A stretch of 62,252 nt of DNA, the filler included, from Jimgerdemannia flammicorona (Eukaryota): NCBI GenBank assembly GCA_003990765.1. It is 3 parts of 3 records of this genome, joined end to end, with 100 filler letters (N's around TTAATTAATTAA, not from the genome) between each part and the next. Parts side by side here need not be neighbours in the genome. Positions count along the whole stretch, not along the records: positions 41,571 to 62,252 come from RBNJ01001613.1; 2 more parts are not named here. One strand, given 5' to 3'. Shown here piece by piece: positions 16,135-62,252 of this stretch. A program made the translations under genes and the position numbers. The notes under the pieces were generated by a model. The model was not told the DNA's origin, searched no databases, and worked only from the letters and a program-made list of their open reading frames with translations. Position 1 is the first letter of the stretch, and every line of letters starts with the position of its first letter.

Positions 16135-16420
16135 GCATAAAGGGATGCAAAAAACGATAAATGGCAAGAAAGGACGCGAAAACGATAACCGGCGTAAAGG
16201 GATGTAAAATTTGATAACCGGCGCGAAGGGGGGATGACGCGAACATGAGGAAGCAGCGCGAAGAGGAGCGAAAAACGATGACCGGTGTGAAAGACAGATA
16301 GAATGAGGGAGCACGAAAACGATGTGAATGTGGAGCAAACGATAACTAGTGTGAAGTAAGATGGAATGAGGGGACGCGAAAACGACATGAAGGTGGAGGG
16401 ACGGCACGAAAAACGCTAAC
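16135..16420. repeat. Degenerate ~28-30-bp purine-rich minisatellite
   Basis: Recurring gcgaaaacgat(a/g)accgg(c/t)g..aa motif, about 8-9 units. Confidence 0.6.
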
Positions 16421-17016
16421 TGGGGGATCTACTAAAGAAAAAGGAAGGGAGAGGGATGTAGCCAGCCAGCGACAGAACAGCGAACGACATGAGAAGGGAG
16501 GAAACTCGTTCGGACAGGTGGGGCTCATAGAGCTAACAAAGCTCCACCCCTCGTCGTGCTGTTTGTATTGTCTGGTGCCTTTGCTCTGAGTTGTCGCATA
16601 TCGGTATTCAAGCTTGCGAGTTCCGTTGTACTTGTCCCCCCCTGATCCGTTGAGGGACGTTTTCCACCACCCCGGATGCTCATTCAAACAACTCGGGAGT
16701 AGCTCGATCGAGGCTGCCAGGTGGAGTCCATCTTTCGTTGAGACATTCGCTGTCTGAGTTAGTAGTGGTCGTGTTTACCTTTTGTACGGAAGCTTGAATC
16801 AAAAGAGGAAAAGGAGGTTGGATAGGCGGAAAAGCAGAAGAGCTTTTTTTTTTGCGGGTACTTGGTGGCTGTCCTTTTCGCTTTTCGTCCTTGGTGGCTT
16901 TTGGAGGTTTATTGGTGACATCATATGGACGTGTTTTTTTTTTTTTTTTTTTTTTTTTTTTTGTGGTGCTTTGCGATATTAGTCACTTAGGCCTAACATC
17001 AAGTAATCCCCCCGTC

Positions 17017-20655: not shown

Positions 20656-20686
<31 letters not shown>

Positions 20687-20786: not shown

Positions 20787-20921
20787 ATTCGAATCCGATT
20801 CGAATCCGATTCGAATCCGATTCGAATCCATCCGGATGGGATTCGAATCCGATTCGAATCTGATTCGAATCCAATTCGAATCCATCCGAATCCCATCCGG
20901 ATTGACTCGTTCGGAGCACTA
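20787..20921. mobile_element. hAT-like transposon end with (ATTCGAATCCG)n subterminal repeats
   Basis: 11-bp palindrome-containing tandem repeat ending in GACTCGTTCGGAGCACTA (reverse strand TAGTGCTC..., hAT-type terminus); matches 44840-44857 at 14/18. LINE ORF1 sequence starts abruptly after it. Confidence 0.6.
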
Positions 20922-26970: not shown

Positions 26971-27001
26971 ATTGGGGTCTCTATTACAACATTTCTTCAA
27001 T

Positions 27002-30000: not shown

Positions 30001-30649
30001 GGAGGAATGGAATTGGAATGGACTCTGGCTTTGGAGCAAGCAGGTGCGGCAGTGGCTGCTCCCAAAGTTCTGGGTGGTATGGTGGAGGGGCCTGCAGCGG
30101 AATGTGATGTTGAACTATCGGTCTGGACACTTGGTAGAGGGTGGGGTATTCGAGTGCAAGGATTGTTTCAATATTGGTCAGGAGGGAGGAGTGATACAAA
30201 CGCCTGAACATTGGCTTGGTGAATGCGAGATTTTGGGGGAGTTTTGGAGGGGAATTATAGACAGGATAGGGATGGGTGTCCGGGAGGGAGAGGAAGGGGG
30301 GAGATGGGGAGAGCTCCACCGGTGACTAGTGAGTGGAGTTGGGGACGAATGGCTGACCCTTAGTTGGGCTTTGGCTATGTGGGTTGGCCTGGCTGGGCAT
30401 TGGGTTTATGTATTTGAGGAAGGACACTGGGCTGGGGTGGCGGATAAGTTGGCCTGGTGGGAATGGTTGATGTCAGATATTTTGAATAGCTGGTGGAGGG
30501 GTTGGGGGATGGGTGGGGGGTACCGCAGGGGTCTGGTGCAGTATATCACCCTGAAGAGTAGTGGGAGGGTTTGGGTAGTGGGTAATTGGGTAGTGCTCGG
30601 GCAGGGGGTGGAGGAGGAGGGGGGTTTGGGCCCTCGGGGCATTGGTTGA
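27002..30649 (+). pseudogene. LINE ORF2: APE endonuclease + reverse transcriptase + C-terminal zinc motif, copy C
   Basis: APE motifs SLNING, GGDFN, SRIDW, SDHW; RT motifs GEDG, PIMLLDMDRK, QCGFV, LDQEKAYDRV, GIPQGDPLS, AFADD, YLG; C-terminal CKDC..EHWLGEC. Stops and frameshifts present. Confidence 0.93.
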
Positions 30650-33600: not shown

Positions 33601-34140
33601 TTTGTACAGATGCCAGAACATTGGCTGGGAGAGTGTTAGGTTCTGGGGGACTTTTGGATAGCAGTAGGAGACCAGATGAGTATGGAGAGGAGGCCAGTTA
33701 GAGAGAGAGATCACTGGGAGGATTTGAAATCTCAGTTAGTGGGTGGTGTGGGCAATGGATGGCTCACTGTAGGGTGGGTTCTAGCTATCTGGTTGGACAT
33801 TGGCTCTTTGTTTTTGAGGAAGGGTGATAGATGGGTATACAGGAGAAGTTATTAAAATGGGAGGGGTTGATGGAAGTTTTGCTGACTAGGTGGTGGGTTG
33901 GTTGGAGTCCCCAGGGTGGGCAATGTCACCATCTGGTGGAAGAGATCTGTAAACAGAGTGGTGGACAGATGGTGGTAGTAAATGACAAAGTAATCTTTCA
34001 TTGAGAGGGGGTGAGAGAGGGGAGAGAGTCCACTAGGGGATTGGGTAGGGGTGGGCACAGTATATTATATAAAGAATAGATGGTGTATTAATAAAGGAAG
34101 GAGTCTGAGTGACTATAAAAAAAAAAAAAAAAAAAAAAAT

Positions 34141-35768
34141 GGAAGGCCAAGATGGTAGTTGTTGCTGGTGAGCAGACCACCTTCTGTTGGGCAGAGCATC
34201 ATGGTCTGAAACTCTGGCAGGAGGCCTGCCTGGAGTATCATGAGAACTTTAAGAAAAAGAAGAATGGGGAGATATCTGAACTTCTGATAGGATTGGAGGT
34301 GAAGGAGACTAAAGAGGAGGAATTGGCTATGAAATATAACTTAGACTTGGCACAGGAGGGGAGGAATGTGGATTTGTAGAGGATGTGCTGGATCTTACTT
34401 CTAAACATTATTCCCAATAAACAGTACAACTAACATTTTTGCTCTGAATGTGTATGAGTTATAGAGATCTGGGTGGTGTAAGAACATTTTTACTTGGCTT
34501 AAGAGACTAGAGGCTAATCTTTTTCTGCAGCAGGATGTATATTGTGAGGATGAGGAGGATCAAGTGGAGTGTACTAGAGAATGGGGAGGAGCTATAGCTT
34601 AGATTGACAAAGTGGCAATTTTGGTGTAGAGTAGTAAAGGAGATTTGAGTGGAATCAGGAACTGGGGAGACCATTTGGTATAGGAGGAATGGTATTGTCC
34701 TGGGTGGGAGTCAGTGAAAGTTGGCTCTTGCTACTGCCTGGTGGTTAGAGGTAAGCAGATTGCATAGATTAAGAGTCTGTTAGAAGAGGGTGCTCTCTTG
34801 GAGGAGAGGGTGGATATTCTGTAAGTGGACTTCAATATGGTGCAGAATCTTCAGTTAGATAGAACTAATGGAGGGAGGAGTGCTGGTGGAAGGAGTGATG
34901 GCCTGGATACATAGGAGGAGGTGGAGACCCTTAGCTTCTTAAAGGATATGGGCAGTATATGGAGGAGAGAAAAGAGAATCTACACATACTGGATGAATGG
35001 ACTAGGTACAAGAATTGACTGGATCCTGCCTGCTGGATGCTGGGGCATAGATATTTGGAAGACTCTGGAGGTAGAGTGATGTCTGTGGTCAGATCACTGG
35101 GGTCTATTAGGGCAGAGACAGTTTGGGGGGAGTGGAGATGGCCCCAGACATTGGTGCCTTAACTCCTCCCTGCTGGCTGAGAAGTTATTGTGGGACCCAT
35201 GGGTGGAGGACATCCAAGTGAAGATTGTTAGCTAGATACATGAGGGTTTGCCAGTGGGTATCTGTTGGATGAAGTTGAAAGAGGCTGTAAGGGGTTACTG
35301 GGGAGGGGCTGGTAGGGATGCTGAGAGGCAGAGAAGGAAAAGGGTGAGGTGTACTTCAAGTAGATTGGCTAGTTTGCAGATGGAATGGGCAGATTTGATA
35401 AGTTCTGGAGAGGTGGATGATTGGAGGTTGGTGTGAGCGAAATTGGAGGTAGTGGAGCTGCAACAGATACTGAGAGAGGAGGAGGAGATATATATAAAAG
35501 AAATGGCAGCTAGGCTGAGGTAGCAGGGGCTTGAGGAGGGGGAAATGATACATGGCACACAATAGATCTTGGGGTTACTGAAGGAGCAGTGGAGGGATCT
35601 GTGGAGTGAGGAAGATGGGGGTGCTGATGAAGAGATAATTGGAGTCATACTGGAGGATTGGGAACTACTACAAGTAGAGGGTCTTTTAGACTTGATCCTA
35701 TCAGTCCAAGAAGAGGAGATCCAGAGAGTCCTTGTGGCAACTAAGCTTGGGACAGTACCAGGAGAGGT
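34141..35768 (+). mobile_element. LINE copy A, right part (end of ORF1, APE and linker of ORF2; 3'-truncated)
   Basis: Resumes ORF1 where 22474 stops; ORF2 start decayed to ATA near 34417; DFN, RIDW and SDHW motifs; breaks off at VPGE. Confidence 0.85.
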
Positions 35769-35861
35769 AAAAGAAGAATAAAAGTTCTTTAATAAATTAT
35801 AAGAAATATTCTTTTCATTTGTTATTACTTATAGAATTTAAATATATAAGTAGTTATTTAT

Positions 35862-37063
35862 CAGGTTCCTTTCTCCACTACCTTACTGGTCACAAGATTT
35901 GGTAGGCAACCTTCCGAGTCTCCTTTCCCCTATTATTACCCCCTCTACCTTGGGTTGGTTTACTATACCTGCATGGGCATAGTGGGAGGAGGGCAATAGT
36001 GATGAGTTGCCTCTTTATCAGTGTCAGATTGGTGTCTTCTCTACTTTTTCACAGTTTCTAATATCTTTGGCTGCATCTGAAGTGCATCTGTTTTGGTATG
36101 GCACCTTCTTCCTTTTGTCATCACCAACTAGGTACTGTCTCGGTGTGTCTCAGGCTATGTAGGGAGTCGGTCAACCTTGGGTGTCAAGTGCTCAGTATAG
36201 GTTATCTGCAGGTCCTCAGTGCCTGTAGTGGGGCCCCCTGGCTTTGGTGAGCTTCCCAGCAAGTGCAGTTCTAGCATAGGTGACTGTTTTTCGGGTGTTG
36301 TCAGGATGGGAGGGGAGATGGCCATCACAGATAGGAGAATGGGTGATTACAGTGAACCAGTGGGGTGCCAGGCTAGGGGCAGTCATCAGGGCTAGGGCAG
36401 ATAATATTTCAGTAGAGCCTTTCAATTAGCTGGTAGAAGGTGGGGTAGTGCAGGGGCCAGCGTCTTAGCTGTACCCAACTGGAACTGGGAGCTGATGCGG
36501 TAATGTGATTGAGGTCCGCAGACTTGGGGAGTAGGATCTTCCTCATTTGGCAGTACCCGACTAGAACCGGAAGCTGACATGGCAATATAATCAAGGCCTA
36601 CAAGCTCAGAGAGTGGGAGTGGAGTCTCTTCAGGCCCTAGCCCATATGTAAGTCCTTTGAGGAAGGTACTGTGTATAAGTCCTTTACTCACTCACTTTGA
36701 ATCTACTTTGTTCTCTATTAGTTAGTTGGGGGGTTTTTTCTTTGCCTTGGGCTTTCTTTTGAGGTTCAGGAGGCTATTCTTTATTCAGTCCTGGTGCTGC
36801 TAGATCCGACACATAGGTGTGCTCTCATGAGTAAATGATGATCTAGCCCTGGTGAGAAGAAAAGTCTAGTCTATATTGTATGGGTCAATATAGCCAGTAT
36901 TTGATAGGCATAGCTAAAGTGGTGGGACTGCTGGACAGTTTAGTAGCCTAGGTTAATGGTGGGATATTGTTTGGTGGGTGGTGGGGGAAGGTTTTGGCCT
37001 ATATAGTCTAGGTTCTCTTCTAATAAAAATCTATGGGACATGAGTCTATTAAAAAAAAAAAAA
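35862..37063 (+). mobile_element. 1.2-kb non-autonomous poly(A) retroposon (SINE-like), copy 1
   Basis: Perfect 16-bp TSD ATAAGTAGTTATTTAT (35846-35861 / 37064-37079), AATAAA, poly(A); homologous end to end with 45983-47155. Confidence 0.88.
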
Positions 37064-37210
37064 ATAAGTAGTTATTTATAATTCTTTAAAAGAAGATAGT
37101 TATAGATAACTCTCCAAACTACAGATTAGTAAAAATAAGACTATGGTATGAAGGAGAAAGAAGATATTCTTAAAATTATCATAATAAAAGTTAGAATATT
37201 CCCCTAAAGA

Positions 37211-37278
37211 TAGGGTTAGGGTTAGGGTTAGGGTTAGGATTTAAGGTATATTTTATTTAGGGTTAGGGTAAGGGTTAG
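37211..37278 (+). repeat. Interstitial telomere-like (TTAGGG)n tracts
   Basis: tagggttagggttagggttagggttagga (37211-37239) and ttagggttagggtaagggttag (37257-37278) inside AT-rich decayed DNA. Confidence 0.85.
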
Positions 37279-38384
37279 AATTAAGCTTCAAGTAATAATT
37301 TATTCATTATAGAATAAAAAGGTATATCAGTATAATAAATAATAAAGTTAACTAGATTAGAAAAAAAAAGTTATTAAGTTTATTAAGATATTTTTGACTA
37401 TTTTTTAAAAAATAGAAAGAGGTCAGTGAAGTAAACAACTAGCTAAGAAGAATAATAAGGCCAAAGAGTTAATTACTTAAAAGATGGTCTATATAAACTA
37501 TTTTCTCATAGTTATTAAGAAAATAAAAGTAAGCAAAATAAAGAAAACTAAATAAAAAATATATATATTTAGTATCAACTACAGAAATAAGTATTGGTAA
37601 CTAAATACTAAGTAGTTATATAAAATGAATAATTTGATATACTCTTAACAATAAGACAACTAATTAGATAAATAAGGAGAGAGAAGAAAAAAAGAAAATA
37701 TAAAATCAATCAATTATCTAAGTATTTTCTTAATCTTAGTTATATAGAATCTAACTATAAGATGGCTATCAGAAAAACATATAGAATTAATAGTATATAG
37801 GCTGTCTTATAAAGAATATGAAGAGAAAAGATATGATGTTTCTTTTAATATTCTTTATTAATAAATCAGTTAAGTTATTCATAACTAAAATTATCTTAAA
37901 ACATAGAATAATAATTATTGAGAAGATTATATTTATAAAAATAACTATGGTAAAACTCATCTCTATAAAGGTATAAGTAGAGATGGCCAAAGTAGTCTTA
38001 TGTAGTAACAGGCAAGTGTAGAGCACATAAGTATAACTCTAAGAAGTTCTGAGATATAATATATTAAACAAGTATTTGAGAAGAGGTAATCTGTTTCTAC
38101 AATAGCTAATTCTAAAAGAAGATCTAGAGAAAAGAGTAGAATAGATAAGTTTTATAAATCTGGAGATTGAGATCCTATTACTAGTTGAGAAAGTTAAGAT
38201 AAAAGATCTAATAATAGAGTTTATCAATAATATATAGGGTCTAAGAGATACATAATAAAGAACTCATTAAGGAGATTAATAAGATTATTGCTAAATATAC
38301 TAAACTAATTCAAATAGGGTTGAAATATATATGTAAAAGAGATCTACATAGTACCACCAAAATGTAAGTTGAATGAGCCTATCT

Positions 38385-41300
38385 GTTCACACCTTTCACC
38401 GGTAACATTCAGGTGACACAAGATTTGGACAACACTTTCTGCGAAGTTTTTGGTGAAAAGCTACTATCAACATGGCGAGCAACGAGCAAACTAGTGGGCA
38501 GGTCGGCCAGGGGGGCAGCCGGGCCTTCGACTGGCAGCAGGTTGGGAGGAAACGAGGAGATGGTTTGGGGATGCCAGGGCCATCTGTGGTGGACGGTGGC
38601 GCTGGAGGTGGAGGGAGAGGTGGACTGAGGCAGAGAGGTGGGGAGAGGGCGACCTTTGCCGACAAGGTCAGGATGGGGAAGATGGCCGCAGGGCTGGAGG
38701 GTTGGTTGGGACTGGGGAAGGCGATGCCGGGTTCAGAAGGAGGGCAGGGAGGATCCCCTATGGGAGCCTCAGTCGGTATGGGGAGTGGGGGAGTAGGGGT
38801 TGGAGATGTGACTGCTGATGGGGCTGTGACGGGGAATCTGGAAAAAAATCCAGATGTGATGGTGGTTGGCGGATCCAGTCAGAAGGAGGGCACGAGGCCT
38901 GGGGACCTGGCTGATGGAGTGACAGGCATGGTGTCAGCACCGTTACTCAAAAAGTCAAGGTCAGAATTCACGGTCACATTGTGTTTCCGAGACTTGGCAG
39001 TGACTTCGAGGATGATCCTGGGGCTGGTGGCACAGGAGGTAAAGGGGGCAGCTATGGTCAAGTTCATGAAGGGGAAGGAAGGGATTGAGGTTGGGTTTGA
39101 AGAAGAGGTGTCGATGCTGGAGGCTATGGAGAAAGGGGTAGTTGTGGGTGGACTGGTAGTTCCTATGGCGAGGTGCATGCACTGGGACCCGAGAGTGGTG
39201 CAGTTGACGGTGCTGGATCTTCCTACGGTGTCGCGGGAGAAGGCTAGGGAGTTGATTGTGGAGGTGGTAAAGGAGTATGGGGATGTCATCGATATCAGGT
39301 TCAAAGTCTGGGAGGGTATGGAACTTAGGACTGGAGACGTTAATGTGAGAGTATGCTTGTTTGGTCGGGAGAACACGGGGAAGGCGAGGGACTGGCCGGC
39401 GATGCTGAAGTGGGGACTAGTTGAGTGTAGGGTTTCTCGGATGAAAGGGATGCTGGAGGAAGAGGAGGATTTGCTGGAGGCTCTTGAGGATCTGACGGGA
39501 GCTGTCAAGAGGAGATGATTGGCTTGGAAGGAGTATGAGGCCAAGACGGTAGTGGAAATTGTAGAAGCGAAGAAGATCAGGATGGACCAAGGAACTTGGG
39601 AGAAGATGCAGGGGAGGCGTATCCAGAAGGAGCTGCTGGAGAAATTGGGAGGAGGCGTGGTGGAAGGTGGAGAGGGAGGAAGTGGCGTAGGATCGAGGGA
39701 AAGTGACTGGGCTGGGGAGCCCAGAGTGGATCAAAGGGTGGCCCAAGAGGTCCATGGGGAAGGAGGGCAGGGCGGCATGGTGGAGGACGCTGGGATGAGC
39801 ATAGAAGTACAGCCACAGTACAGGGTCCCGGGAGGAGTCGGAGGTGAGGAGGAGCTTCTTGATGTCCTGGAGGAGGAGTGGGATGAGTCGGGAAGGAGGA
39901 TCGCAGTGGTGAACCCAGTGGTTGGGGGGGAAGGGAGTGCCCAGGGTGCCGAGGCAGTGGTGGAGGAGGAGAAGTGGCTGTGGAAGACTCTGGAAGGGGT
40001 GGCAGCTGAGGAGCTGGGAGGTGAGGACTTCCGGGTTATGAGTGATAGGCACTGGGAGGAAATTCTGCGTAGTGAGGAGGTGCCAACGAAGGTCTGGAAT
40101 GAAATTCTGGTGGTGCTCCTGGAGTCGGTGGAGTATCAAGTTGATGATCAGCGAGAGGAGGAACTTCGAGTGATTGTGAATGATTGAGCAACTTACCTAT
40201 GGAACTCGAAGAAAGGGTTGGAGAAGTGGGGAGTAGTGTGCAGGGAGTATCGGACCGAATTTGAAGTAGTTGATGGAGCAGAGTGCCAGGAAATCTTGGA
40301 GGCACTGGATGCGCAGGAGGTGATGGAGGATGAGTTGGAGGATGAGCAGCGCCTGGATATGCGGGGGGACAGGAGGAGCATGGAGTTCTAGATTGTGATA
40401 TCCCTACCAACATTATTCAATATGAACAGTACAACTAGAATCTTTTCTTTGAACATCAATGGGCTAAGGGGGGCAAAACAGCGTAGAAACATTTTTAGCT
40501 AGTTGAAGGGTCTGGAGGCAGATCTCTTCCTATTGCAGGATGTGTGGTATGAGCCGGATGTGGACCTACTGGACTGGACTCGGGAATGGGGTGGGGCGGC
40601 TATATGGACAGGGCAGGTGGGCATCCTGGTTAGAAAAGGGATGGGGGACATTGGGGATGATGGACATTGGGGGAGTCGGCTGGTATGGGGAGTGTGGAGG
40701 AGGCCTGGTTGGAATGCTTTGACTGTTGGGTCGTGCTATTGCCCAGCTGAGAGAGGGGAGCGCATAGGCTGGATCAAGGACTTGCGTGAGGCAGGGGTCT
40801 TGGGGGAAGCTGGGATTGACTGTCTGGGGGGTGACTTCAATATGGTGCGTGATAATGTGGTAGATAGGACTGATGGGGGGAGAGGACTGCAAGGTAGAAG
40901 TGGAGGGCAGGAGGGTTGGATGGAGGTGGAGAGGTTGAGTTCATTGGTGGACTCAGGGTGACAGTTCTGGGGGGATCGCCAAATCTATACTCATTGGGTG
41001 GCAGGACTTGGATCTAGGATCGACTGGGTGTTAATGGTGGAGTGCTGGGGAGTGGATGTCTGGGCTACGCTGGAGGTGGTTTGGTGCCTGTGGTCCGATC
41101 ACTGGGGGCTAATAGGGAGTGGGAGATTTGGGGGAAGTGGGGATGGGCCAGGGCATTGGCGACTCAACTTGTCTCTATTGGAGGATGGTTCTCTATGGAC
41201 TGATTGGGAGGTGGAGGCTACTGAGAAGATTATTAGATGGCAGGAGCAGAAATTGGTCATTGGAGATTGATGGAGGAGGCTGAAGTCAAGTGCTCAGCAG

Positions 41301-41470
41301 TTCTGGGGGGAAGCAGGGAGAGAGAAGAGTGCACAAAGGTGGAGGCGGGTACAATGGGCTTCACATAGATTGGGGACACTTTTGGAGAAATGGGCAGGGT
41401 GGATAGAAGGTGAAGGAGTAGTGGAGTGGCGAATTCAGCAGATAAAGAAGGAAGTAGCGGAGCTGAAGGA
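38385..41470 (+). mobile_element. LINE copy D (young, CpG-rich; ORF1 38472-40391, ORF2 from 40422), cut by assembly gap
   Basis: Same 5' UTR as copy C (ctttcaccggtaacattcaggtgacacaag); ORF1 has 640 codons with only two TGA stops; APE motifs present. Confidence 0.92.
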
Positions 41471-44857: not shown

Positions 44858-45047
44858 TATAAAGTATATATATATAAGTTCTCACTATATACATATACTA
44901 TCTTTAAAAGTTGCTTCTACTCTGATAACTTTATATATTCTTTTTTATATATATAGCTTAATAGTAGATGTAATATCTCATAGAGCTCTTATATATAGTA
45001 TAATATAGTTTTAAGATAGCAATATATATAGAAGAAGAAAAGTATAT

Positions 45048-48000
45048 TTCTCTATTATAATTTATATTATATAAACTTCTAATAATACTTTTGATATAGT
45101 ATTTAGAGAAAAGATAATAACAATATAGTAATGAGCAAGAGTTCTGATCATAGTAATGAGTAAGAGTTTTGATAAATGTACTGGTCTAGTAGATCTGAGG
45201 CCTTTGGATGATAGTATATTGAGAGAGAATATGGTCTGAGAATAGACTCTTTCAGTAGTATGAGTAGTTAGGAGAAGTCTGAAGAATGACCAGTATCAGA
45301 TAGAAGTGGAGGCAGACAAGGGTCTATGAGTTTTACTAATAAGATAAAGATAAGAGAATAGCCAATAAGTACTTGGACTAGTGAAACTGGCAGTAGAGGT
45401 GAGCTGAGCCAGAAGAGGGCTAAAGGTCCTCTGTTTGGGAGAGTAAACATAGAGACTAGAAGAGCTATAGCTGGGAGAGAGGGGGAGACTACTGATAGTA
45501 ATATAACTGGGAATCTGGAAAAAATCCAGATGTAACAACTAATGACAGGGCTGGGCAGGTGGGCTAAGAAAGGAATAAAGATCTAGTAAATAGTGTAATA
45601 GGTCTGATAGTAGTACTATTACTCAAGAAGTCAATCTTAGAATTCACTATCATATTATATTTCTAGGAACTAGTAGAAATAATTCTAAAGCTGATCTCAA
45701 AGCAACTATCTGAGACTGCTTCAGTAAAGTTCTTATATAAACTAAAGAGAGTTGAGATAGACTTTGAGAAGATAGAGCTACTGGAGAAGGCTTTGAAGAC
45801 TGGATTGATATTTAGTGAGATAGTAGTACTAATGGTAAGATACTTATATATAATAAGACTCCAGAGTGGTACAACTCCTGGTAAAAGAGATATCTATAAT
45901 GATAACTACTGAGATAAGATAGAGGATAGAGAAAGTAATGATAGAGTACAGTATATAGTAGATATCAGATTCTAAGTCTGGGCAAGCTCTTTTCTCTACT
46001 ATTATATCAGTCATATAGTTTTGGCAGACAACTGTCTAAGTCTCCTTTCCCCTAACTTCTCATTCTCTACTCTAGTATGGTTTGCAATACCTACATAAGT
46101 ATAATAGAAGGAGGGCAATAGTAATGAGTGACCCTTTTATCAGTATATGATTGGTGTCTTTTCTACTTTTTTGCAGTTTTGATGCCTCCAGCTATGTCTG
46201 AAGTATACTCATTTTAGTACAGTGCCTTCTTCCTTTTGCTATTATTAATAAGGTATTATCTTGATATATTACAAATTATATAGGAAGTCAGCCAATCTTG
46301 GGCATCAAGTACTCAGTATAGATTACCTATAGGTCCTCAGTACCTATAGTAGAGCTCTCTAATTTTGATGAGCTTTCTGGTGAGTGCAGTTCTAGTATAG
46401 ATAACTATTTTTCAGATGTTGTCAGTATGAGTAAGGAGATGGCCATTACAGATAAGAGAAAGGACAATAATGGTAGACCAATAGGGTACCAGGCTGGGGA
46501 TAGTCATCAGAGTTAGGATAGGTGCTGTATTGATGGGGTCTTCTGATTGGTACAGAGCAGTTAGGTAATAGATATCACTCATGACTTCTTTTAGTGATTT
46601 GTGAGGTTGGGCCCCAGTTATTGAGAGAGGTCAGAGGGCTTAAGGCTATCTATTTCAGGTATCTTAGCTATTCTCAACTAGAACCAGAAGCTGATATATC
46701 AATATAATTGAGATCTATAGACTTGTATTGAGGGTCTCCTCTTACCTTATATATAAGTCCTTTACTTATCTCATCTGGGAGAACCAGGTCCTATTCACTA
46801 TGATATACTTTAATAGAGGTTTTTTCTTTATCTGTCATTCTTCTTAGAGTAGCAGGGGCTATTCTATTCAGCTTAGGTATAGCCTTATATATATGTTGGG
46901 CTTTTAGATATACATATGCTTTCAGTTTTTAGTATATGGTTGATTTTCTCTGATAGTAGAGAGACCATAGTATACAGAATAAGGTGTGGGCTATATTAGG
47001 CCCTGCTGTATCTGATATAGTTGAGCTACTGGATAATAGCTAGCCTAGGTTTAATGAGAGTATAGTACTTAAGAGCGGATAGGGGAGGGTTTTGGCCTAT
47101 AGTCTAAGTTCTCTTTCAATAAAAATCTATAAAACATTGAGTCTGTTAAAAAAAAAGATTCTGAGTCTAAGAGGAGATAACTTTCAGAACTGAAGATATA
47201 GATATCTGGCTTCAACTTATAGAGAAAGAGGCTATAGAGAAGAACTGAGACTAGCTATTAGTAATGATGTAGAAAGCCTTCATCTATAAGATGATAAGGG
47301 TGAAGGGGAGTGAGATAGAAGAGAAGAATCTGCTAGAAGTACTGGAGGACTTGAGTAGAGCAGTAAACTATAGAGCTATAGTATAGAGAGAGTATATTGT
47401 ATTCATCTACTTAGAGATAGTAGATAAAAAATATATTTGAATAGACAAGATACTGTGGGAGAAGACTTAGAGAAGAAAAAGGCAATAAGATCAATTGGCA
47501 GAGTTGAAGGCAGTATTAGTGACTAAATTAGAGAAAAGTTCAGAGGGTATGCTGGAAAGTGTCTGAACTACTAGTAGTATAGAGAAGTAGGTAGAGAGTG
47601 TGAGAGTGAGTAGAGAAATGAGAGATCAGCAGCTTTATGATAATGGTGTGCTAAAAGTGTAAGAGAAGGAAGAGGTGGGGGAAGAGAGGGCTATAGTTTT
47701 AGGGTAGAGAGCTAGTGAAGACATCAAGATGAGAGATACTAACAGGGTTTAGTTTAGGATACCAGATGTCACAAAAAGAGACAGGTGGTTAATATTAAAA
47801 TAAAGGAGTTAGTAAATGTTCTGGAGGAGAAGTAGAATAAGTCTGTAAGTGCTAGAACTAATACTACAATACTGAGTGGTAAGTGGTCAAATACTTTTGA
47901 GGGAAAAAATATTGAAAACTTATGATAGATATATATAATAATGTACAATCTGGTGGTAGAGGAGTTGGGTGAGATAGACTTAAGAGTAGTTAGTGAGAAT

Positions 48001-51000
48001 TACTAGAAGAGGATTCTGCAGAGAGATAATATGGTAAAAGCTCTCAAGTCTGAGGTATTGGTGGTTTATCTGAAGAGAGAGAGTTATGAGATCAATGCAA
48101 TAAGAGAGATAGAGTTGCTGGAGACTAAACTGCTTTTTAATAGAAGAAGTAGAATGGTAGTATACTCTGGCAAGAGACATATCTGATATATATATAAGGA
48201 GAAGATAGAGGAGAAGAATGATGAGATAATTACTGAGATTCTGACTAGGCTAGAGGTAAGGAAGGCTAAGGAGGCTGAGGTATAGACAGAGTATGGTCTG
48301 AACTTAGATTGCAAGATAATAAGTATAGAGCTATGAGAAGTCAGGTCTACTCTATAATATTATCTTTTTATGAATAATATAACTAACATCTTCTTACTAA
48401 ATATAAATGGTTTAAAAGATTCTATAAGATATTAAAATATTTTTTCTTAGCTAAAGAGATTGGAGGCTGATCTCTTTCTTTTGCAGGATATGTGCTGAGA
48501 GGAGGACTTTAATGGATAGAATTAAACTAAAGAATAGAGTAGTATAGCAGTTTGAAGAAACAAAGTTGAGATTCTAGTATAGAGTAGCAAAGGCAAATTC
48601 TGTAAAGTTGGTAGCTAGAGTGGTCATTTGGTATAGAGAGAGTAGTATGTATAGACCAGAGTGAGAGTCTGTTATTATTGACTCCTATTATTGCCCAGCA
48701 GTATAAGGTAAGTAGATTGTATAGTTGGAGAGACTTCTAGATTATAGAGTATTGACTGAAATAGGAGTGGATATTCTTGAGAAAGACTTCAATATAGTTA
48801 GAGATATAGTATTAGAAAGAACTAATTAAGAGAGGAGTACTAGAGGCTATAGTAGTAGTCTGAAGATATAGAAAGAGATAGTGAGGCTGAGCTCTTTAGT
48901 AAATGCAGACAGAGTATTATAGAGTGACTGAAGAGTATATATCTACTGGATGAATAGATTTGAAACTAGAATTGACTGAATGTTAACAGCTGATTGCTAG
49001 GAGATAAATATTTAGAGAAAATTAGAGATTGAGTAGTACCTATGATCTGACTATTGGAGATTGATAGAGCATGGTCAGTTTGGAAAAAATAGAAATAGAT
49101 CTGGATATTGGTATCTCAATTCCTCTTTACTGACTGAGTAAAAACTATGGGATATATGAGTAGAGAATATTGGCCAGAAGATCTATTGTTAAATTAAGGA
49201 GAGATACTTGATTAGAGTCTACTAGATAAGATTAAAAAAAAAAGAGGCTGCTAGAGTCTACTAGAGAGAGACTGGTAGACTAGCTAGAGAGCAGTAATAT
49301 AGACAAGTAAGGTAGCCTTTAGTTAGATTGGTCTAATTACAGATGGATTGGGCAGGTCTGCTGGGGCTGAAGATAGAGACAAATTGGAGATAGAAGAGTT
49401 ATAAAGAGTGTTAAGAGAGGAGGAGGAGGCTTATGTAAAGAGAATATCAGTAAGGTTACAATAATAGAGGTTTGAGAGGACAAGAGGTCCTTTAAATATC
49501 TATTATAACTTCTTTAAACATAGAGGGTAAAGTAAAGATAAGATAGTGTACTCAATAAGGAGAGCTTACTAATATATAAAATTCAGTGAATCTTAGACTT
49601 TCTAAAGAAGCAGTAGGAGGGAGTTTGTGAAATAAGAAAGAGGGGAGTACTGATGTAGTAGCTATTGAGTATACACTGAAAGATTGGTAATCTCTATAAG
49701 TAAAAAGACTGGGTGATCTGGTTCTACTAGTCTAGATAGTAGAAATCTAGCAAATTCTTATAGCTACAACATCAGACACTGTACCAAGTAAGGATGGTCT
49801 GCTCTGGAATTTTTGAAAAAAGATAGTAAGAGTCTCAGAAATATTAGAAGAGATAGCAATACTATGTAACTTTTTACTCTTATCTGAGAAGTAGATTGGA
49901 GAGCAGGACCTTGATCTGGTAGTATTGCTATTTAAGGATAAGAGCAGATAAGAGAATTGAAAGAACTGGTGGCCAATCATACTTCTGAATATAGATAGGA
50001 AGCTAGTTATAAAAGTAATTATTGTATAGCTACAGAAGGTGGTCTAGTAGATATTGGGTGAGGAGCAGAGAGGTTTTATTAGAGGTTATCTTATAAGAGA
50101 TAGAATAGTAATACATAATATCATTGAAGAAGTGAGAGCTAGTAGATTGGATAGAAGATTAGTCTTTCTGAATCAAGAGAAGGTCTATGATTATGTGAGG
50201 TGAGTATAGCTAGAGAAGGTATTAGACAGAATTGGTATATCTTAGCAATTCTGAGTTTTGATGATTAGTTTGTTAGAGGGTAGCAGGGCAGTACTTATAT
50301 ATAATAATTACTATAGTATAATATTCTCTTTAGAGAGAGATGTATCTCAGAGAGACTTATTGTCTTCAATTCTATATACTCTATTATTGAAACTATTGAT
50401 AGACCAAATTCAGTATATAGTGGCTAAGCCCTTAATCTATGGAATAGTTTGAAAGATTGTACATAGTATTTGCTGATAATATAGTGGTTGGCCTTGACTC
50501 TATTACTAATATTAGAGTATTGTGAGAGACTGTGGAATAGTATAAGAAGTACTCTAAGATAAAGCTCAACTGGCATAAGTGTGAGATGATAGTGCTAGAG
50601 AATAGCTTAGTAGAGGGAAATGTCATTGGAACAATTGTCCTAGCAGAAGAGACTGTATAGTATCTGGATATATTTCTGTTAGTTTATAGTTAAGAGTTTG
50701 ATAGAAGAGGAAGATAGTTAGCTGGGGGAAAGCTCTTCAGAGCTGAAAAGAATATCACATCTCTCTGATAGAGTAGATATTGATTCTGAATATTTACTAG
50801 CTGTTAAAGTTATGGTATCTGGTATACCATCTGGACTTTCTAGCCTGGGTGGTGAGAAGATTATCAAAGTTAGCTAAGAATTGAATCTGAGTAGAGAGAT
50901 GATATCAGATAAGATAGGAGATCTTGATATTATTAGTGAATAGAAGTGGTCTGAGTTTTGTAGACTTCTCTAGAAGACTATATTGCTTGAGAGCTTAGTT

Positions 51001-52096
51001 GTCAAAGCATACTGCTGAGCTACAGAGAGATAGATGAGTACTACTACTATAGAAGATTTGAAAGATATATTTTTCTCTTAGAGGCTCTTTGGAGGATCTA
51101 CTATCATTAGTAGAACTAGGTAACAGTCAGTACTTATAGTTTATAGACTTCTGGTAGAGGGTAGTAGATAGTGCTTATCACATTATATTGTGCTAGAGTA
51201 GTGCTGAGAGAGAAATAGATTGGAATCCTAGAATGTGACAATGAGATCAGCTTCTATTGGATGGCTCTTTACTGGTAAACTTTAATCTCAGTACTAAAGT
51301 AGAGTACCAGTGAGAGATAGACCAGAATTTGAGTAGTAGATAGCTAGTATTAACAAGAAATGGGACTGAGCAAGAGTCTGGTCCTAGAGTTTAAAGATAT
51401 AGTAGTGGCTTCTCTTGAAGTTCTGAGTAGTGTAGTGGCATTTGCTACAGAGAAATATTATACTAAACTTTAGGTCAGAGTACTTGATAGTGAGTAGCAT
51501 CTTTAATTATAAAGAGTACTTTAATATAGAGTAGAAGGAGAGATTTATACAGATGCCTGAACATTGACTAGATGAGTATAAGATTCTTAGTAATTTCTGA
51601 GTTATGATTGAAAATTACCTAGGAGTAGTGAGAAGAGTAGATAGTGAGCAAAATTAGTAGGAGAATTTGCAGGAACATCTGGTGAGCTGTATTGGTGATG
51701 AGTGGCTCACTAATGGGTAGGTCTTAGTAGTATAGATGAGTCTGGCTAGATACTGGTTATATATATTTAAGAAGGATAAGAGAATAAGTTTAGAGGAGTA
51801 CTTATTGAGATAAAAAAGATTGATAGAGGATGTTTTGTCTGACTGATGAGTAGAATAAGATCTCCAAAGAGTTACCATCATTGTCTAGTAGAGGGAATTT
51901 ATAGGAAGAGTAGAGGAAAAGTTATAGTAATTAATAGTATAGTGGCTTTTAATTGTAAAGGAGTGGAAGAGAGTCTCTTTAGAGAGATTAGATAGAGTTG
52001 AGGCTTTTGTATTATATATAGATTAGATTAGTCTGATAATAAATATAGAAGCCTGAGTAACTATAATATATATATATATATATATATACATATATA
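45048..52096 (+). mobile_element. LINE copy E, full length but heavily C>T/G>A mutated
   Basis: TSD GAAGAAGAAAAGTATAT (45031-45047) / GAAGAAGAAGAGTATAT (52097-52113); relic motifs NLEKNPDV, PLLKKS-like, DFN, WWPIILLN, NQEKVYD, FADN; (TA)n tail; contains the 1.2-kb retroposon. Confidence 0.88.
45983..47155 (+). mobile_element. 1.2-kb non-autonomous poly(A) retroposon, copy 2, inserted in ORF1 of LINE E
   Basis: 16-bp TSD AGATTCTAAGTCTGGG (45967-45982) / AGATTCTGAGTCTAAG (47156-47171); same 5' and 3' ends as copy 1. Confidence 0.85.
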
Positions 52097-52573
52097 GAAG
52101 AAGAAGAGTATATATACATAGAGTCTGATCAATAGTATTATATCTATTATTGGGGTCAGACCAAGTAAGATACTATTGCTGATATAGTTGATGAAAGATT
52201 GCAATATATCTGTTCTCTTAACTAAAAATAGTACTTTATGTATATAGATAAATATTATAAACTTCTATATATAGATTACTATTTATAAACTTAATATCTA
52301 TTAAGTCTGTAATATTATATAGTTGAAAAAAGATATACTTATATATCTTTTACTCAAAATTTATAATGATGTAATTATAAGTATTCTTCTTTATACTAGT
52401 TATTACTATAGATAATATATATCAGAATAGTCTAATCTTTAGTAGTAGTACATCAGTAGATCAAAGCTATATATATAAAGTAAAAGTAACTTATAACTCT
52501 ATAAATATAACTTTCTATAGACTAGATAGATGCTTTTAACTCTTATCTTATGAGTTATATATATATATATATA

Positions 52574-52882
52574 GAAGAATATCTAATTGAAACAGTCAGT
52601 AGTCAGTAAACTATATTTTACTATATAGTATAGAAAGTGATAGTTTACAAGTAATACTATCTTATATATAATATTATAGATCTGCTTAACTATTATTAAG
52701 ATTACTGCTTATAGGTCTGAGATTTAATATATATATATATATTTAGTCTTAATTGTAAAGAGTTCATACTTACTACTAAATATAGATTTTATAATTTTAT
52801 ACTTACTAGTCTTCCTATAAAGATATAGTCTACTTGAGCAATAAGAGTAGATATCTTATATAGAGTCATTATGACTCATATA
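52574..52882. repeat. Family X dispersed repeat, copy 2 (interrupted at ~52882)
   Basis: Colinear with ~452-762; homology stops where the GGGCATGCTGCAACAAAA motif begins. Confidence 0.8.
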
Positions 52883-52913
52883 GGGCATGCTGCAACAAAA
52901 TCAGATAAAGTGA
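52881..52913 (+). mobile_element. Putative left terminus of a DNA transposon
   Basis: Marks the breakpoint in repeat X (+/-2 bp) and matches the motif at 11071. Confidence 0.6.
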
Positions 52914-56798: not shown

Positions 56799-57485
56799 AT
56801 ATATATATTTTATGCACAGTTTGTTCAGTTTTGTAAAATTTCTTTTACACAGTATACCTTTAAAATACATAGGACTACCTCTATACCTATGCAGTCTTGC
56901 TCTTTTAATATTTTCGTTTTTTCCTTGATTCTTCAGAAGTTTCTGGTAATTCTCACTTCTTAGTATTTAATTCCTGCTGAAGCATCTTCTCAGTAAGTGG
57001 TATTTATGTTCCTATTAGAATTAATATGTAATTATTGGTAAATTTCATAGGTAATTCTCTCTTTATCCAAATATTCTTGGATAGCTTTGATGTTGGATAC
57101 TTTGAGCTATCTTTTCACCCCGCTCTTGTTTCAAAATACTTCTGATGGTACTATAGTTTTTCGGTTCCATAGTGGACTTGATGTAAACTAGTTTCATTGA
57201 TATTTTATATAGGGATAATTATTCATTAATAAAGATGATCTGAAAGATGAGAAGTTTTTATATATGAAAGTAGGTCTAAAAAGATGGTTAAACCGATATT
57301 CGTTGTGATTTCAAGGGCAACTTTCCTCAATAATATGCCATTAGAGGAACAGGTAAGTTTCATTGGTGATTATAGAAAGTTTTTTACTAAAGCTTTCACT
57401 CACGTGACAGTTCGTTACACCATTTATGAACAAATAAATTTTTGACGTGACGCGTAGAACTTCACTATTCTGGCACTTTCAAAAC

Positions 57486-60400
57486 ATGTCAACGTTCTTC
57501 GACGCACCCGCAGAAAATTGGACGTATGACGCTATTGCAGCAAACTATTGCGCCGACGATAACATTAGTCGCGTTTTCGACCGTATTAAGAAGGATCTTC
57601 AGCGACGTGCTGAGAGGGAAGATCGCGATGCCGTGCATGCACAAAGGCTTCTGGATTCCGGCTGGCAGGTGAGTAAGACGTTGCCTATAAAAATGTTATT
57701 ATTGCTATAGTCGAGTGGGCTATCCTTTCTCACTCATGAGGAAAAAGGAAGGTCTGTGAATTTTGAATAATTCCTCGGACGTCGTGGATCTAGCTGGGTT
57801 ACTGCTCGTCGCCCAGTGATGGCTGCTCGCCGATCCCTTTTTCAGCAGCTAGCTGGGTTACTGCTCGTCGCCCAGTGATGGCTCCTCGCCGCTGCTGAAG
57901 GCGCCCAAAGGGGACGTTCTAACCATGTTATATTTTTTTGCCCTCTTGAACAAGAAACTTGTTAAAGCGGTGAAGAACCGCGTAAGCATTGAAAACACAA
58001 AGAAGCGGCCTATGGCCGCGAACAAGCTTAGCCCAAATGAGGTATAACATTCTCCGAGTTTTTCCGAAATCTACACCGATATCCCATTTGCGCAAACTCC
58101 CTATACTAATATGGTTATTCTAATGACCCTTTTTTTTTTTTAATGTGCAGGAGCGCCAAGCGGTCCATGACCGCCTCGAATGGGAGGGCGACTCGAACAC
58201 GCCGAAGGTCAAAGTGACGTACAGCAGCAAGCGGTCCATAGCCGCGAGCAAGGAAGACGAGGAATTCTTCCCTGGTTTTCAAGGTAAGTTATATGAAAAC
58301 AAGAATGTGGGAGAAAATATTTCCGGGTCTCAACTTGCTATCAAACATTCTAGAACTTATGCGCTACCTTGAGAACAATGAAATCTGGTCTTATGCTGAA
58401 TTTCTGGTTCAGCACCATGATGTTATCCTTGTCTCGCCACCTTTTTCCGACGATTGGTCTGTTCTTGATGGTTGCTGGGCTCGTCGATTTTTGTTTCAAG
58501 CAAAAAATTTCGATTCAAGCGACCATAGTGTTTTAGAAAAAAAGGTGATGTATTTCTATACTTTGTCTATACTTTGTTTAGGGAGCTCCTATCTGCTATC
58601 TCAGGATTTGGAGTATTGGATATCGCTCCAACCCGAGTGACGGATCGGTGGCACTCCTATCTGCTATCTCAGGATTTGGAGCATTGGATATCGTTCTAGC
58701 CACCACCGTTGCGATATATATTTGCTTGAAATTGAAATTTTATTTTTGAAAGGAAAAAAATCGATACTCATGTCTACATTCTACTCTGACAGGTGAAATC
58801 TGAGCGTTCAAACGGAAGGTTTCAGTTATATTGGGAGGAGATAATATATGAACGGAAAGAGGTCTACAAGCTTTCTTAATGTCCATCGCCTATTCTTTTA
58901 TCATTAATCACTAACCTCATGTTTGTTTGCAACGCAGATGGCAACAAACCGGATACATCTCAAGGCTAGCATGGATTTACTAGGTGTAGCTGGCACACAG
59001 AATTTACAAAAAAATAACCTCTAGAGGACATCTGAAAGCTTTTGTTGGGCACGATCTGAACAGAAAGGTAAATGATAGATTGCTCTTTAGGCTCCGGTGA
59101 TCAAGCCTAACTTATTATATGTGTCTATATATACTAGGGAAAAGCTAGTGAAACCGGTCTAGCCGAACCTCGAGAAATAACTTCGGATGCTGTCAACAAC
59201 CCATTTTTATCTAACGAAGAGGATGAATCGAACATAGCGTCCGATCAGGTATGATAGTTTCTTTGGAATTTCATAACACAAAACTACAGGTATTATGAAT
59301 TCACTCGAAGTGAAACAACTTCCGACAGATAGAGCAGACAGCAACCCGAAACAAAAATACCCGGAAGAGATTCTGGGAAGACGACAATCCAAATGCGAAG
59401 CGACAGACGAATAAACATGCGCATACAGAAAATGATGAGGAAGATGATGAGGAAAATGAGGAAGAAGATGATGAGGAAGATGAGGAAGAAGAAACAGCGA
59501 GGTAGGCAAATAATAATCTATACTTTGTGAAGGATCACTTTGGATTATTCTCATTACATTATTGATTGCTGGATAGCAACGACCAAGAGGAAGACGCTAT
59601 GAAGCGGCTGAAGGACGCATATTTAGATGCGAAACAAAACAAAGCTTCGACTGAGTAAGTAAGCCCTTTGTCTTCGGCAACGAATTGTTGCAATTTTCTC
59701 ACTTCGTGTCGATAGCCCGATTTGGTGGCGAGTTGTAGATATGACAACCACCAGCATTAGATGGCGACCCTCCCAATCTTGGCTGGAGAACACAAGGAAA
59801 ACTATACGCGGCCGGATCCCGGACAACATCTCCGAGATGGCCAAGATATTTATTGCAGCGTTGTATCAGGTACGTACTTGGGACAGGATTGCTTGAATCC
59901 CTTGAGATTGTGACTCACGGCCTACGCGCTTATGTGCAGCTTCCACTCGCAGAGTTGCAGAAGGTCGCACGGGACTACAAGCAGATTGGATCGAAAGGCA
60001 TTCTGAGAAACCTATCAACGACAGAGGTGCCGGTCAAGGCCTCTGCGAAGGACCGGCTACAAGCGATGGTGTGTGACATGTCTCCGGCTCCTTCTCCTCC
60101 ATGTCTAGAGGTGAATGCTGTTGATCCCTCTGCGGCAGAAATTATTTGGATCCTGGATTGCCTCAGTGAGATGTAAGGGATCTATTTCCTTAAATTCGTT
60201 CGGTTTCGTGTATATTTTATTTATCTTATTTACTGGCAATAGCTATACCAACACTGAGCGCGGCATTCCGCAAAGGAGGAATACGGAAAGAGACATTGAC
60301 ATCTTCTACAACAGATGTCTTTTTCGGATTGTCGAAGACGTTGTTGATGTCCATTTGTAAGTGGTATTTTGCGTTAAGATTCATCGTAATTGTTAACCTT

Positions 60401-61279
60401 GTGCTAACGGCGCACAACTCGTTATAGTGGGGAAATGTGTAGTCGTGCGTCCAGAGAACGTCGGCAAGTTGCTGTGGACAGAGCGAAGATAAATGAAGGA
60501 AGCAAACTTGATTGGCTTTTTTCGGTATGTTTCCATTCATTTATATTCGATATACCTTACGCCTTGACTCATATTTGTATCTATTATAGCGTCATGACTT
60601 GGGCCCAGCCTATTACTGGGGTCAGGAGTTTGGCATAGTGGAAAATGCTGGAACCAAGTGCGACAATAAGCGAAAGGTATCGAAGGATTCTCTAAGGACA
60701 ATGAAGAACCTCAGAGACATGCTATTGTCCATAAGAAAGCGGTTTCCCGTGCCCGGGGAGAGCTCGATCCTGGACGAAGCCTTCAAGCAGCTGGTCCTTC
60801 CAGGGATCGTCATGTCGTCATGGACGTACCGTATCATAGCAGTTTCGCCAATCGATGACACTTGGCATGGCTTAATAGACGTAGATAAATTCATACTTCC
60901 GACGACTATGAATGAACTTCAGCAAGTGTTGAAGTGTTGCCGTTCGATGTTGTTGGTTCGAGTAAGTGTAACTTGTTGCTGTTGTCGATCCTTTAAGCGC
61001 TTTCGAGCTCTGAATCAGTATTTGCCATCCTTTCTATATGACTAGGAAATTCTCAAGAAGACGATACAGATCATGAGGTTGGCTGCGGAAGTCGTGGACG
61101 AAGATGGCTTTGTGCCGTGCGAAAATCAAGGTAGTCCAGAAGAGCAACGAACTCCTAAAAAAAAAAAGCAAGGTATGAATATCGTTATGAAGATATTAGG
61201 GAATCTTCAACTTCTGAATCTTTGCATTTCCCATCTCTTAGGTTCGAAGGCACCAGCCAAGGTTGGAAAGAATGTGTAG
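57486..61279 (+). CDS. Intron-rich Crinkler-related gene with C-terminal restriction-endonuclease (PD-(D/E)xK-like) domain; probably recently pseudogenised
   Basis: About 15 exons with GT-AG introns (e.g. 57669-57954, 58042-58150, 58284-58353). C-terminal GEMCSRASRERR..GSKLDWLF..QEFGIVENAG..KVSKDSLRTMKNLRDML fits REase-fold families expanded in Mucoromycota; acidic linker; in-frame TAG near 59022 and two TGA near 59297-59312. Confidence 0.68.
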
Positions 61280-61555
61280 AACACAATAAAGTCTCTGATT
61301 GGCACTCGAGCCTTTACTTTCTCTTGAGGAATTCCACTCCGAATATTATTGAGAAAAGGAACAAGGGTATTTATACTTGCGGAACGCAGCATTCAACTCC
61401 AATATAAAAACTTCAACGAAAGTTACCAGAAACATCCCAAGGACCTAGGAAAAAGAAAATATTAGAAAAGATTGCACGGCTATATATATATAGGGAGTAT
61501 TCCTTTATAGAAGAAATTTTACAAAACCGGACAAACTGTGTGTAAAATATATTAT

Positions 61556-61934
61556 ATGGTTGTGATGACTGAATATGAAAAAGTAATCGAGTTCTTGAAA
61601 GTGGGCTGTGGTTGTGGTTGTTCTTCCAAAGTTCCCAAGGAAGTGTTTGCTGAGATGCTTGAGGCTTTTCAAGCTCTTTCCAAGTTAGAACAAGACATCT
61701 TTTTAATGGCTCAACTTAAGGCCATGGATTGTGGATTCACAAGCACTAGTCACTGGCTTAAAAAGAAAGCTTATGTCAATAAAAGAACATTATACTGCTG
61801 AGACTGCAATCCATCTCTTTACCAGAAAACTTAATTGAATATGCTGGGAATTGGTCAAGCTCATTTTGAAAATGTCAGAAATCATTTGCTAAATAATAGT
61901 CTTTTATCACGACTCTATGGCAATACCAAAAGGG
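61556..61934 (+). mobile_element. Second Sola-like transposase copy (5' part), interrupted by LINE F
   Basis: FLKVGCGCGCSSKVPKEVF..LEQDIFLMAQLKAMD..YGNTKR homologous to 56798-56425 (minus); the upstream flank from ~61420 also matches ~56950. Confidence 0.8.
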
Positions 61935-62252
61935 TCATCTCTCTCCACTACAATTCACGTTACACGCACTTTTCAACACACTTTCGAAGCATTTATTGGA
62001 GAAAAGATACTAAGGCAATGTCAACCAGCAAGCAAGCCGACACGCATACTAGGTCAGGTGGACCTGGGGCCTTCGACTGGCAGACTGTCGGGAGAGGGTA
62101 TGGATTGGGGATGGGGTCCTTCGGTGGCTCGAGTGGGCAGGGTGGCTCCGGCAGTGGAAGTGGCACTGGAGGGGGGGCTGGAGAGAAGCAGGGGAGGAGC
62201 TTTGCAGACACGCTGAGGGGTGGGGGCTGGCCGTTGGGCACTTGTGGTGGAC
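61935..62252 (+). mobile_element. LINE copy F, 5' end (young, CpG-rich; ORF1 ATG 62018), runs off window
   Basis: Homologous to the 5' ends of copies B (22475) and E (45048); MSTSKQADTHTRSGGPGAFDWQ. Confidence 0.88.

Follow-up and report, generated by a model that had tools for sequence, protein, structure and literature searches.

Context-ranked C-to-T decay of LINE copies in the Mucoromycota fungus Jimgerdemannia flammicorona leaves RIP-like relics

Repeat-induced point mutation (RIP) mediated by DIM-2 in Neurospora is strongly directed to CpA (10.1101/115501), and between 0 and 108 RIP mutations per progeny have been reported (PMC12543289). In Zymoseptoria, Dim2 is described as methylating CA and then CC sites, with almost no activity at CT (PMC8016269, legend S8). 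Phycomyces encodes both DIM2 and DNMT1 and methylates its transposable elements (TEs) in CG and CHH contexts (PMC11258239; reviews PMC13297926 and PMC7862722). A kingdom-wide survey of 2025 found RIP-like signatures restricted to ascomycetes (PMC12543289); its table gives an N50 near 11 kb for Jimgerdemannia flammicorona and an Endogone, whereas its k-mer screen kept scaffolds of >50 kb, and thus the Endogonales were probably barely tested. Here, we describe a 62,252-nucleotide stretch of J. flammicorona DNA (the window), which consists of three contigs joined across two N gaps and contains six copies of long interspersed nuclear elements (LINEs). A methyltransferase exon outside the window matches proteins named J. 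flammicorona with 100% identity across 87% of its length, which assigns the genome to the Endogonales, Mucoromycota. We found no published report of the mutation pattern of these copies in that phylum, the original Endogonaceae genome paper lying outside the search.

The C>T changes in the LINE copies were restricted to repeats, fell on both strands, were unclustered, followed a fixed ranking of sequence contexts and grew along the nesting order of the copies. The process is neither two-stage nor classical RIP; it behaves like methylation-linked decay and ends in RIP-like relics. All six copies (A to F) were located by self-BLAST, tblastn and RVT_1 match at the positions given in the initial annotation, and in self-BLAST the host halves rejoined across each insertion of the nest (C in B in A). 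The copies and the two controls are as follows.

1200..20686, no strand assigned: control, gene-rich block with a CpG observed/expected ratio (o/e) of 0.99
20914..22472, plus strand: 5' part of LINE copy A, which forms the outside of the nest (start approximate)
22473..24956, plus strand: LINE copy B, 5' part
24957..30729 (analysed as 24971-30726), plus strand: LINE copy C inside B, with a 12-nt duplication
30730..34143, plus strand: LINE copy B, 3' part with terminal poly(A)
34144..35800, plus strand: LINE copy A resumed after B, truncated (end approximate)
38389..41470, plus strand: LINE copy D, from the youngest family and truncated at an assembly gap
45024..45047, plus strand: left target-site duplication of E, 23/24 identical to the right one
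45048..52089, plus strand: LINE copy E, full length and most decayed, with 0 CpG in its own sequence and about half of the CpA and 40% of the CpC cytosines lost
~45849..47156 (ends approximate), no strand assigned: 1.3-kb A-tailed repeat within ORF1 of E
52090..52113, plus strand: right target-site duplication of E, 24 nt
57473..61400, plus strand: control, CpG-intact and apparently intron-containing multicopy gene with dispersed paralogues
61933..62252, plus strand: LINE copy F, of which the window includes only the 5' end (320 bp), CpG o/e 0.48

The decay gradient proposed in the initial annotation was real. Copies D and F kept 81 and 12 CpGs (o/e of 0.46 and 0.48), C was intermediate with 97 (0.29), and B and A were near zero with 6 and 2 (0.02 for both), while E had none; the genes at 1.2 to 20.6 kb had 1115. 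The interval 45048-52096 contained a single CpG versus 179 expected from its base content. For F, none of the fetched loci was a close sister, and composition alone was checked. The further decay claimed for E was also evident. Its 229 reverse transcriptase residues aligned to C included 10 stops, which stood opposite glutamine (3), arginine (3), tryptophan (2), proline and cysteine, and the same region had 5 stops in B and 0 in C. The TpA/ApT ratio was 1.30 in E and 0.54 to 0.55 in C and D, and the substrate index (a RIP index) of E was 0.93.

The window copies could not be scored against one another because they belong to different subfamilies, with transversions of 12% between E and B and of 16 to 17% between E and C. 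Instead, sister copies were fetched from the same genome: 26 usable of 30 loci for C, the best 30 of 41 matches for B, the best 30 of 40 for D, 6 of 42 matches for A and, for E, the 14 of 43 distinct places that lay within 5.2% transversions. These sets are the best-scoring candidates rather than random draws. Under one rule applied to all window copies, the C>T losses at CpA, CpC and CpT were 13/367, 9/579 and 4/380 in D; 42/684, 51/1132 and 23/615 in C; 63/385, 78/559 and 22/339 in B; 46/168, 32/240 and 10/159 in A; and 89/180, 109/258 and 29/143 in E, with transversions at 0.3% to 1.2% throughout. The CpA losses followed the nesting order, as the initial annotation had held for decay in general, being higher in A than in B (p=0.004) and higher in B than in C (p=2e-7), while the CpC losses did not separate A from B (p=0.91); both A-B comparisons used different parts of the two copies.

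Compared with its nearest sister (C984), E showed 21.8% transitions and 1.8% transversions over 2702 sites. Scored against its 14 relatives, E had C>T changes at 131/261 CpA, 156/377 CpC and 36/217 CpT sites, with 12/675 T>C changes and 12/1575 transversions. The state-calling rule favors C>T calls in E, and the firm part of this result is the contrast of CpA and CpC together with CpT (287/638 versus 36/217, p=1e-14). E was typical of its relatives, 13 of the 14 of which were scored (CpA, 0.33 to 0.59; CpC, 0.34 to 0.45), and the 1.3-kb insert was about as decayed as E itself (CpA, 69/116; CpC, 61/198; CpT, 17/112).

Expressed as hazards per C, -ln(1-p), the rates at CpG, CpA, CpC and CpT were 0.21, 0.025, 0.019 and 0.011 in the D family (30 copies); 0.59, 0.061, 0.046 and 0.016 in the C family (26 copies); and 1.55, 0.141, 0.129 and 0.043 in the B family (30 copies). 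In E, they were approximately 0.70, 0.53 and 0.18 at CpA, CpC and CpT. The CpG/CpA ratio was nearly constant (8.4 in D, 9.6 in C and 11.0 in B), and CpC/CpA varied from 0.74 to 0.91; the relative rates were about CpG 10 : CpA 1 : CpC 0.8 : CpT 0.3, with the same ranking across age classes. Counted symmetrically, CpA and CpC together exceeded CpT in all three LINE families (p of 3e-13 to 3e-151). C>T at CpT (0.007 to 0.011 in D) was not clearly above T>C in D and was in weak excess in C and B. A non-LINE repeat family at 56.3 to 57.2 kb (15 copies) gave hazards of 1.45, 0.19, 0.13 and 0.09 in the same order of contexts. The CpA hazard was higher in E than in D by approximately 0.67, whereas transversions were higher by approximately 0.005 per site, a difference of about a hundredfold, and CpG was tenfold faster again. 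When one set of rates was run forward, the GC, CpG and TpA contents of the five copies D, C, B, A and E were roughly reproduced, as were their two RIP indices; the trends in GC, CpG and TpA and the rise and later fall of CpA/TpG were followed through these copies to the AT-rich blocks. The two-stage model of the initial annotation was rejected, since the rate ratios were constant over families and a single rate set approximated all copies.

RIP is strand-polar within a round. Strand runs and event spacing were examined in families C, B and D. Adjacent non-CpG events on the same strand were not in excess of simulation in C (1661/2520 versus 1698+-27), B (1732/2728 versus 1793+-29) or D (455/675 versus 469+-15), and the CpG events of D showed no strand runs either (517/1041 versus 519+-16). 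No clustering of events was seen in any of the three families (within 10 columns in C and B), and strand proportions were alike among copies (p of 0.34, 0.46 and 0.70). CpG events were split evenly between CG>TG and CG>CA (601 versus 628 in D; 1959 versus 1860 in C), and the per-site rates in E were alike on the two strands (CpA, 29/53 and 102/208; CpC, 24/52 and 132/325). All 30 D copies carried non-CpG events, 11 to 43 each and none with zero. To account for the strand tables, a D copy needs some 23 or more independent strand choices and a copy of the C family some 220 or more, the latter for about 147 CpG events per copy. Incidental matches (12 in all: 2 D, 5 C and 5 B) served as a check for bias towards lightly mutated sisters. 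In this small sample, which counts certain places twice and includes fragments of copies from the window itself, no near-erased young copy was found, although three B-like pieces had CpA losses of 0.24 to 0.29, above the range of the B family.

The base 5' of the cytosine had a consistent effect. In D, losses at CpG were highest for ACG (325/1042, 0.31), followed by GCG (254/1223, 0.21) and CCG (326/1652, 0.20), which were equal, and then TCG (262/1800, 0.15); the C family had the same shape, with TCG the slowest (601/1665). At CpA, the order was ACA (0.084), GCA and CCA (0.064 and 0.059, again equal) and TCA (0.031). CAG, CCG and CTG were not spared. Unrepaired deamination of 5-methylcytosine (5mC) in MBD4-deficient cells is reported to follow ACG > CCG > GCG > TCG, with the same 5' order at CpA (PMC11564873), and the order observed here resembles it.

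Duplicated genes behaved differently from the repeats. Between paralogues of the gene at 57.5 to 61.4 kb, C/T differences were found at 80/1318 CpG, 62/1260 CpA, 73/1061 CpC and 81/1356 CpT sites, that is, 0.061, 0.049, 0.069 and 0.060 per C, with a transition/transversion ratio of 1.7; these counts come from overlapping, nonindependent pairs of one family that is partly coding and possibly under selection. At 75 to 98% identity, the dispersed paralogues had no C>T excess and kept their CpGs. In the closest pair (blocks of 361 and 417 bp at 96 to 98%), we counted 8 transversions, 1 CpG transition and 2 CpA transitions. Further paralogues (560 bp at 94% and 514 bp at 88%) also kept CpG and showed no bias, in what is still one family near the RIP length threshold; RIP thresholds are quoted as 400 to 600 bp and 80% identity (PMC4165359). 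The gene appears intron-rich, its paralogues are often CpG-rich islands beside decayed repeats, and the single open reading frame scanned had no Pfam match. Thus, the non-CpG C>T changes are context-biased and confined to transposon DNA, as the initial annotation had suggested. RIP proper was not borne out, with CpG at about 10 times CpA, CpC nearly equal to CpA, no bursts or strand runs and the duplicated genes of the one family sampled spared.

The search for DNMT1-, DIM-2- and RID-like genes that had been proposed alongside the gradient was positive for DIM-2. PF00145 was matched by 4 of the 8 candidates scored: two larger DIM-2-type methyltransferases and two pieces that, from their motifs, we take to be DNMT2-like. 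Each of the latter (L067, G000:C58:1-2260; L068, G000:C2181:1-2237) sits at the start of a different contig, and the assembly may have divided a single gene between them. The first DIM-2-type protein, P0001 (C8187), has RFD, DUF7893, BAH and methylase domains, with RFD and BAH below cut-off. Its near-identical twin, P0002, had its best PDB match in 9BAQ/9BAP (136 bits, versus 92 for DNMT1), which is Neurospora DIM2 (PMC11315935). In a tree of 15 rows, P0001 grouped with Phycomyces enzymes (support 90/94), and both enzymes fell with the DIM-2-type rows, although P0004 was not placeable; the tree had long branches and no RID row, and it left out P0002, P0003, P0015, P0019 and P0020. Contigs of 2/2 runs, presumed to be RNA, skipped GT-AG introns of the P0001 gene at the 15 joints listed. 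Two public annotations of the gene differ at L065:2400-2700, P0002 being without motif I, and the run contigs splice the intron at 2645-2722 of L065 as in P0001. In the second protein, P0004 (C3657), motifs I, IV and VI are intact, and the match to DIM2 scored only slightly over that to DNMT1 (123 versus 116 bits). Endogone, Phycomyces and Gigaspora have related enzymes. The genome thus appears to have two DIM-2-type methyltransferases with intact catalytic motifs, one of them seen spliced. No RID-like gene was found among the four PF00145 matches, in a weak search of a fragmented assembly. For DNMT1, the PF12047 profile gave no match, but its control was likewise silent, so that absence is not established, and an algal-type query, also a weak search, matched the DIM-2-type locus only. 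Among the few repair candidates scored, the two HhH-GPD matches were MUTYH-like and NTH1-like, with no MBD4.

We favor, as the more probable account, methylation that is targeted to TEs in all contexts and is followed by continuous deamination with little repair. The two DIM-2-type methyltransferases would most likely be the enzymes that methylate a TE copy shortly after it inserts, heavily at CpG, less so at CpA and CpC and least of all at CpT. The methylcytosines would deaminate to thymine singly, on either strand and with poor repair, and each copy would decay in a clock-like manner at the relative rates given above. A two-stage appearance would arise because CpG saturates and is exhausted first. 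The series D < C < B <= A < E would then be mainly one of age. In the small sample available, the presumed mark followed the element and not its surroundings, and ordinary gene duplicates escaped it.

Several observations weigh against this account. The forward run left an excess of CpC/GpG at the stage of E (1.09/1.03 versus 0.68/0.72). The loads of mutations were overdispersed among copies (chi2 of 60 at 29 df in D, 114 at 25 in C and 206 at 29 in B) and did not track private transversions within families (rho of -0.05, -0.31 and -0.21), and age is therefore not independently confirmed within families; the overdispersion may reflect a spread of ages, the local methylation level or weak episodes. 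One 1-kb contig ends in a TDG/Mug-like glycosylase fragment (L188, G000:C34337:5-118), and G:T repair may therefore be present. Methylation without CHG enrichment, as described in Phycomyces (PMC11258239), differs from the pattern here, in which CAG, CCG and CTG are also lost. In Neurospora and Zymoseptoria, moreover, the mutations that depend on DIM-2 fall in a narrower range of contexts (CpA) than the methylation by this enzyme (10.1101/115501, PMC8016269). Finally, the hundredfold gap between CpA loss and transversions from D to E may be beyond passive chemistry.

The excess of C>T over transversions, roughly a hundredfold at CpA and larger still at CpG, also fits a different and rather doubtful possibility, namely, that the DIM-2-type enzymes are themselves mutators, by catalyzed deamination or through a coupled deaminase, and maintain a continuous, low-dose, vegetative RIP-like defense that includes CpG. 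The two genes with intact catalytic motifs agree with this, as do the Dim2-dependent mitotic C>T changes of Zymoseptoria (PMC8016269) and DIM-2-dependent RIP in Neurospora (10.1101/115501). However, both precedents are described as strongly CpA-specific, whereas CpG dominates here; the 5' order resembles that of passive deamination, and there were no processive clusters. True premeiotic, pairing-triggered RIP in many very weak rounds, added to ordinary CpG-methylation decay, is unlikely. It would account for transition-only change confined to repeats, the RIP-like indices of E and the overdispersed loads, and it finds some support in L156 and L174, the 2 of the 23 D copies with flanks shown that sit in CpG-rich DNA. 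These copies had 17 and 19 non-CpG events, like other D copies, while their flanks kept CpG to within 150 bp. Yet such rounds would have to leave the CpG and non-CpG rates at one ratio (8 to 11) over three families and produce no strand runs or bursts. The closest gene pair, whose two blocks add up to about 780 bp, is above the quoted thresholds (PMC4165359) and carried only 1 CpG and 2 CpA transitions against its 8 transversions, although it represents a single family, maybe under selection. No RID-like gene was among the four PF00145 matches. Ordinary AT-biased neutral decay with CpG decay, or APOBEC-type editing during retrotransposition, is very improbable and largely refuted. G>A does dominate the raw sense-strand counts and yields TGG>TAG stops, but this skew arises because the sense strand is G-rich, and per site, both strands were alike. 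The CpT rate of the youngest family was no higher than T>C, as such decay would have it, whereas the excess of CpA and CpC over CpT was present in every LINE family and not in the gene paralogues, and the non-LINE repeat family had the same CpG and CpA excess.

If TE-targeted methylation with continuous deamination is the correct account, the ranking of rates predicts a methylome with CG >> CA >= CC > CT. A Mucoromycota genome with strong repeat-restricted C>T decay and DIM-2-type enzymes makes methylation-linked mutation studiable apart from RID. RIP indices flag old, presumably methylated elements of this kind as RIP-positive, and ages estimated from their transitions come out far too high. 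Only tentatively would we suggest that the Endogonales run a continuous DIM-2-driven TE mutator without RID and possibly without DNMT1; such an all-context defense (CpG > CpA = CpC > CpT) outside Dikarya, at about a hundredfold over background and with gene duplicates spared, might represent a possible ancestral state behind RIP.

Three further features of the window lie beside the LINE copies.

35850..37059, no strand assigned: another, less decayed member of the repeat family found as an insertion in E
37060..38388, no strand assigned: AT-rich block, GC 0.23, no CpG, dinucleotide pattern of late-stage decay
52114..52900, no strand assigned: AT-rich block without CpG (GC 0.22), in part 82% similar to 431-761

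The A-tailed repeats at 45849-47156 and 35850-37059 form a family of 1.2 to 1.3 kb with no class assigned, which also flanks other loci and has an almost unmutated sister (L052). At 20787-20910, a short tandem array with a 10- to 11-nt unit and about 15 intact CpGs adjoins the CpG-free copy A and an assembly gap. An inverted pair (56424-56949 and 61423-61932, 74%) stands on either side of the gene at 57.5 to 61.4 kb; because both members belong to a dispersed many-copy repeat family, they probably are not terminal repeats of one element. On the minus strand at 2130-8482 is a gene matching zf-C3H1 and HAT/NRDE-2-like domains, which we take to be a ZFC3H1/Red1-like nuclear RNA-surveillance factor.

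The pattern shares features with several known systems and differs from each in others. Zymoseptoria tritici Dim2 is likewise a DIM-2-type enzyme with TE-confined C>T, and its non-CG methylation order (CA > CC >> CT) equals the mutation order here, whereas >98% of the new C>T reported there falls at CA with CG spared, and here CpG is about 10 times CpA and CpC is near CpA (PMC8016269). RIP of Neurospora crassa, with its RID and DIM-2 branches, similarly turns repeats into AT-rich, TpA-rich relics by transition-only, repeat-confined C>T (10.1101/115501, PMC12543289), but the decay described here had no preference for CpA over CpG, no bursts or strand runs and no effect on the gene duplicates of the one family sampled, and RID was not found in a weak search. 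Like signature SBS96 of MBD4-deficient cells, it is dominated by CpG with a tail at CpA, and a 5' A is fastest and a 5' T slowest in both contexts (PMC11564873); unlike in that signature, CpC is also strongly lost, 5' C and G rank equally, transposons are hit, and the genome has a TDG-like gene fragment. The TpCpG hypermutation of Pucciniomycotina is also CpG-directed C>T in TEs outside Ascomycota (PMC3318451), but here TCG was slower than the other CpG contexts, and the losses extended to non-CpG sites. In Tuber melanosporum, the CpG methylation resembling methylation induced premeiotically (MIP) is repeat-restricted in a similar way, while no RIP-index shift is reported in that account (PMC4165359). 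Phycomyces blakesleeanus, also of the Mucoromycota, has repeat-restricted 5mC that is highest at CG, with CG and CHH methylation on TEs, and it encodes DIM2; it differs in having DNMT1 too and in the CHG pattern noted above (PMC11258239). The window itself contributes a nested age series with constant rate ratios, tests for strand runs and bursts that gave null results, a control with gene duplicates and the match of 5' context.

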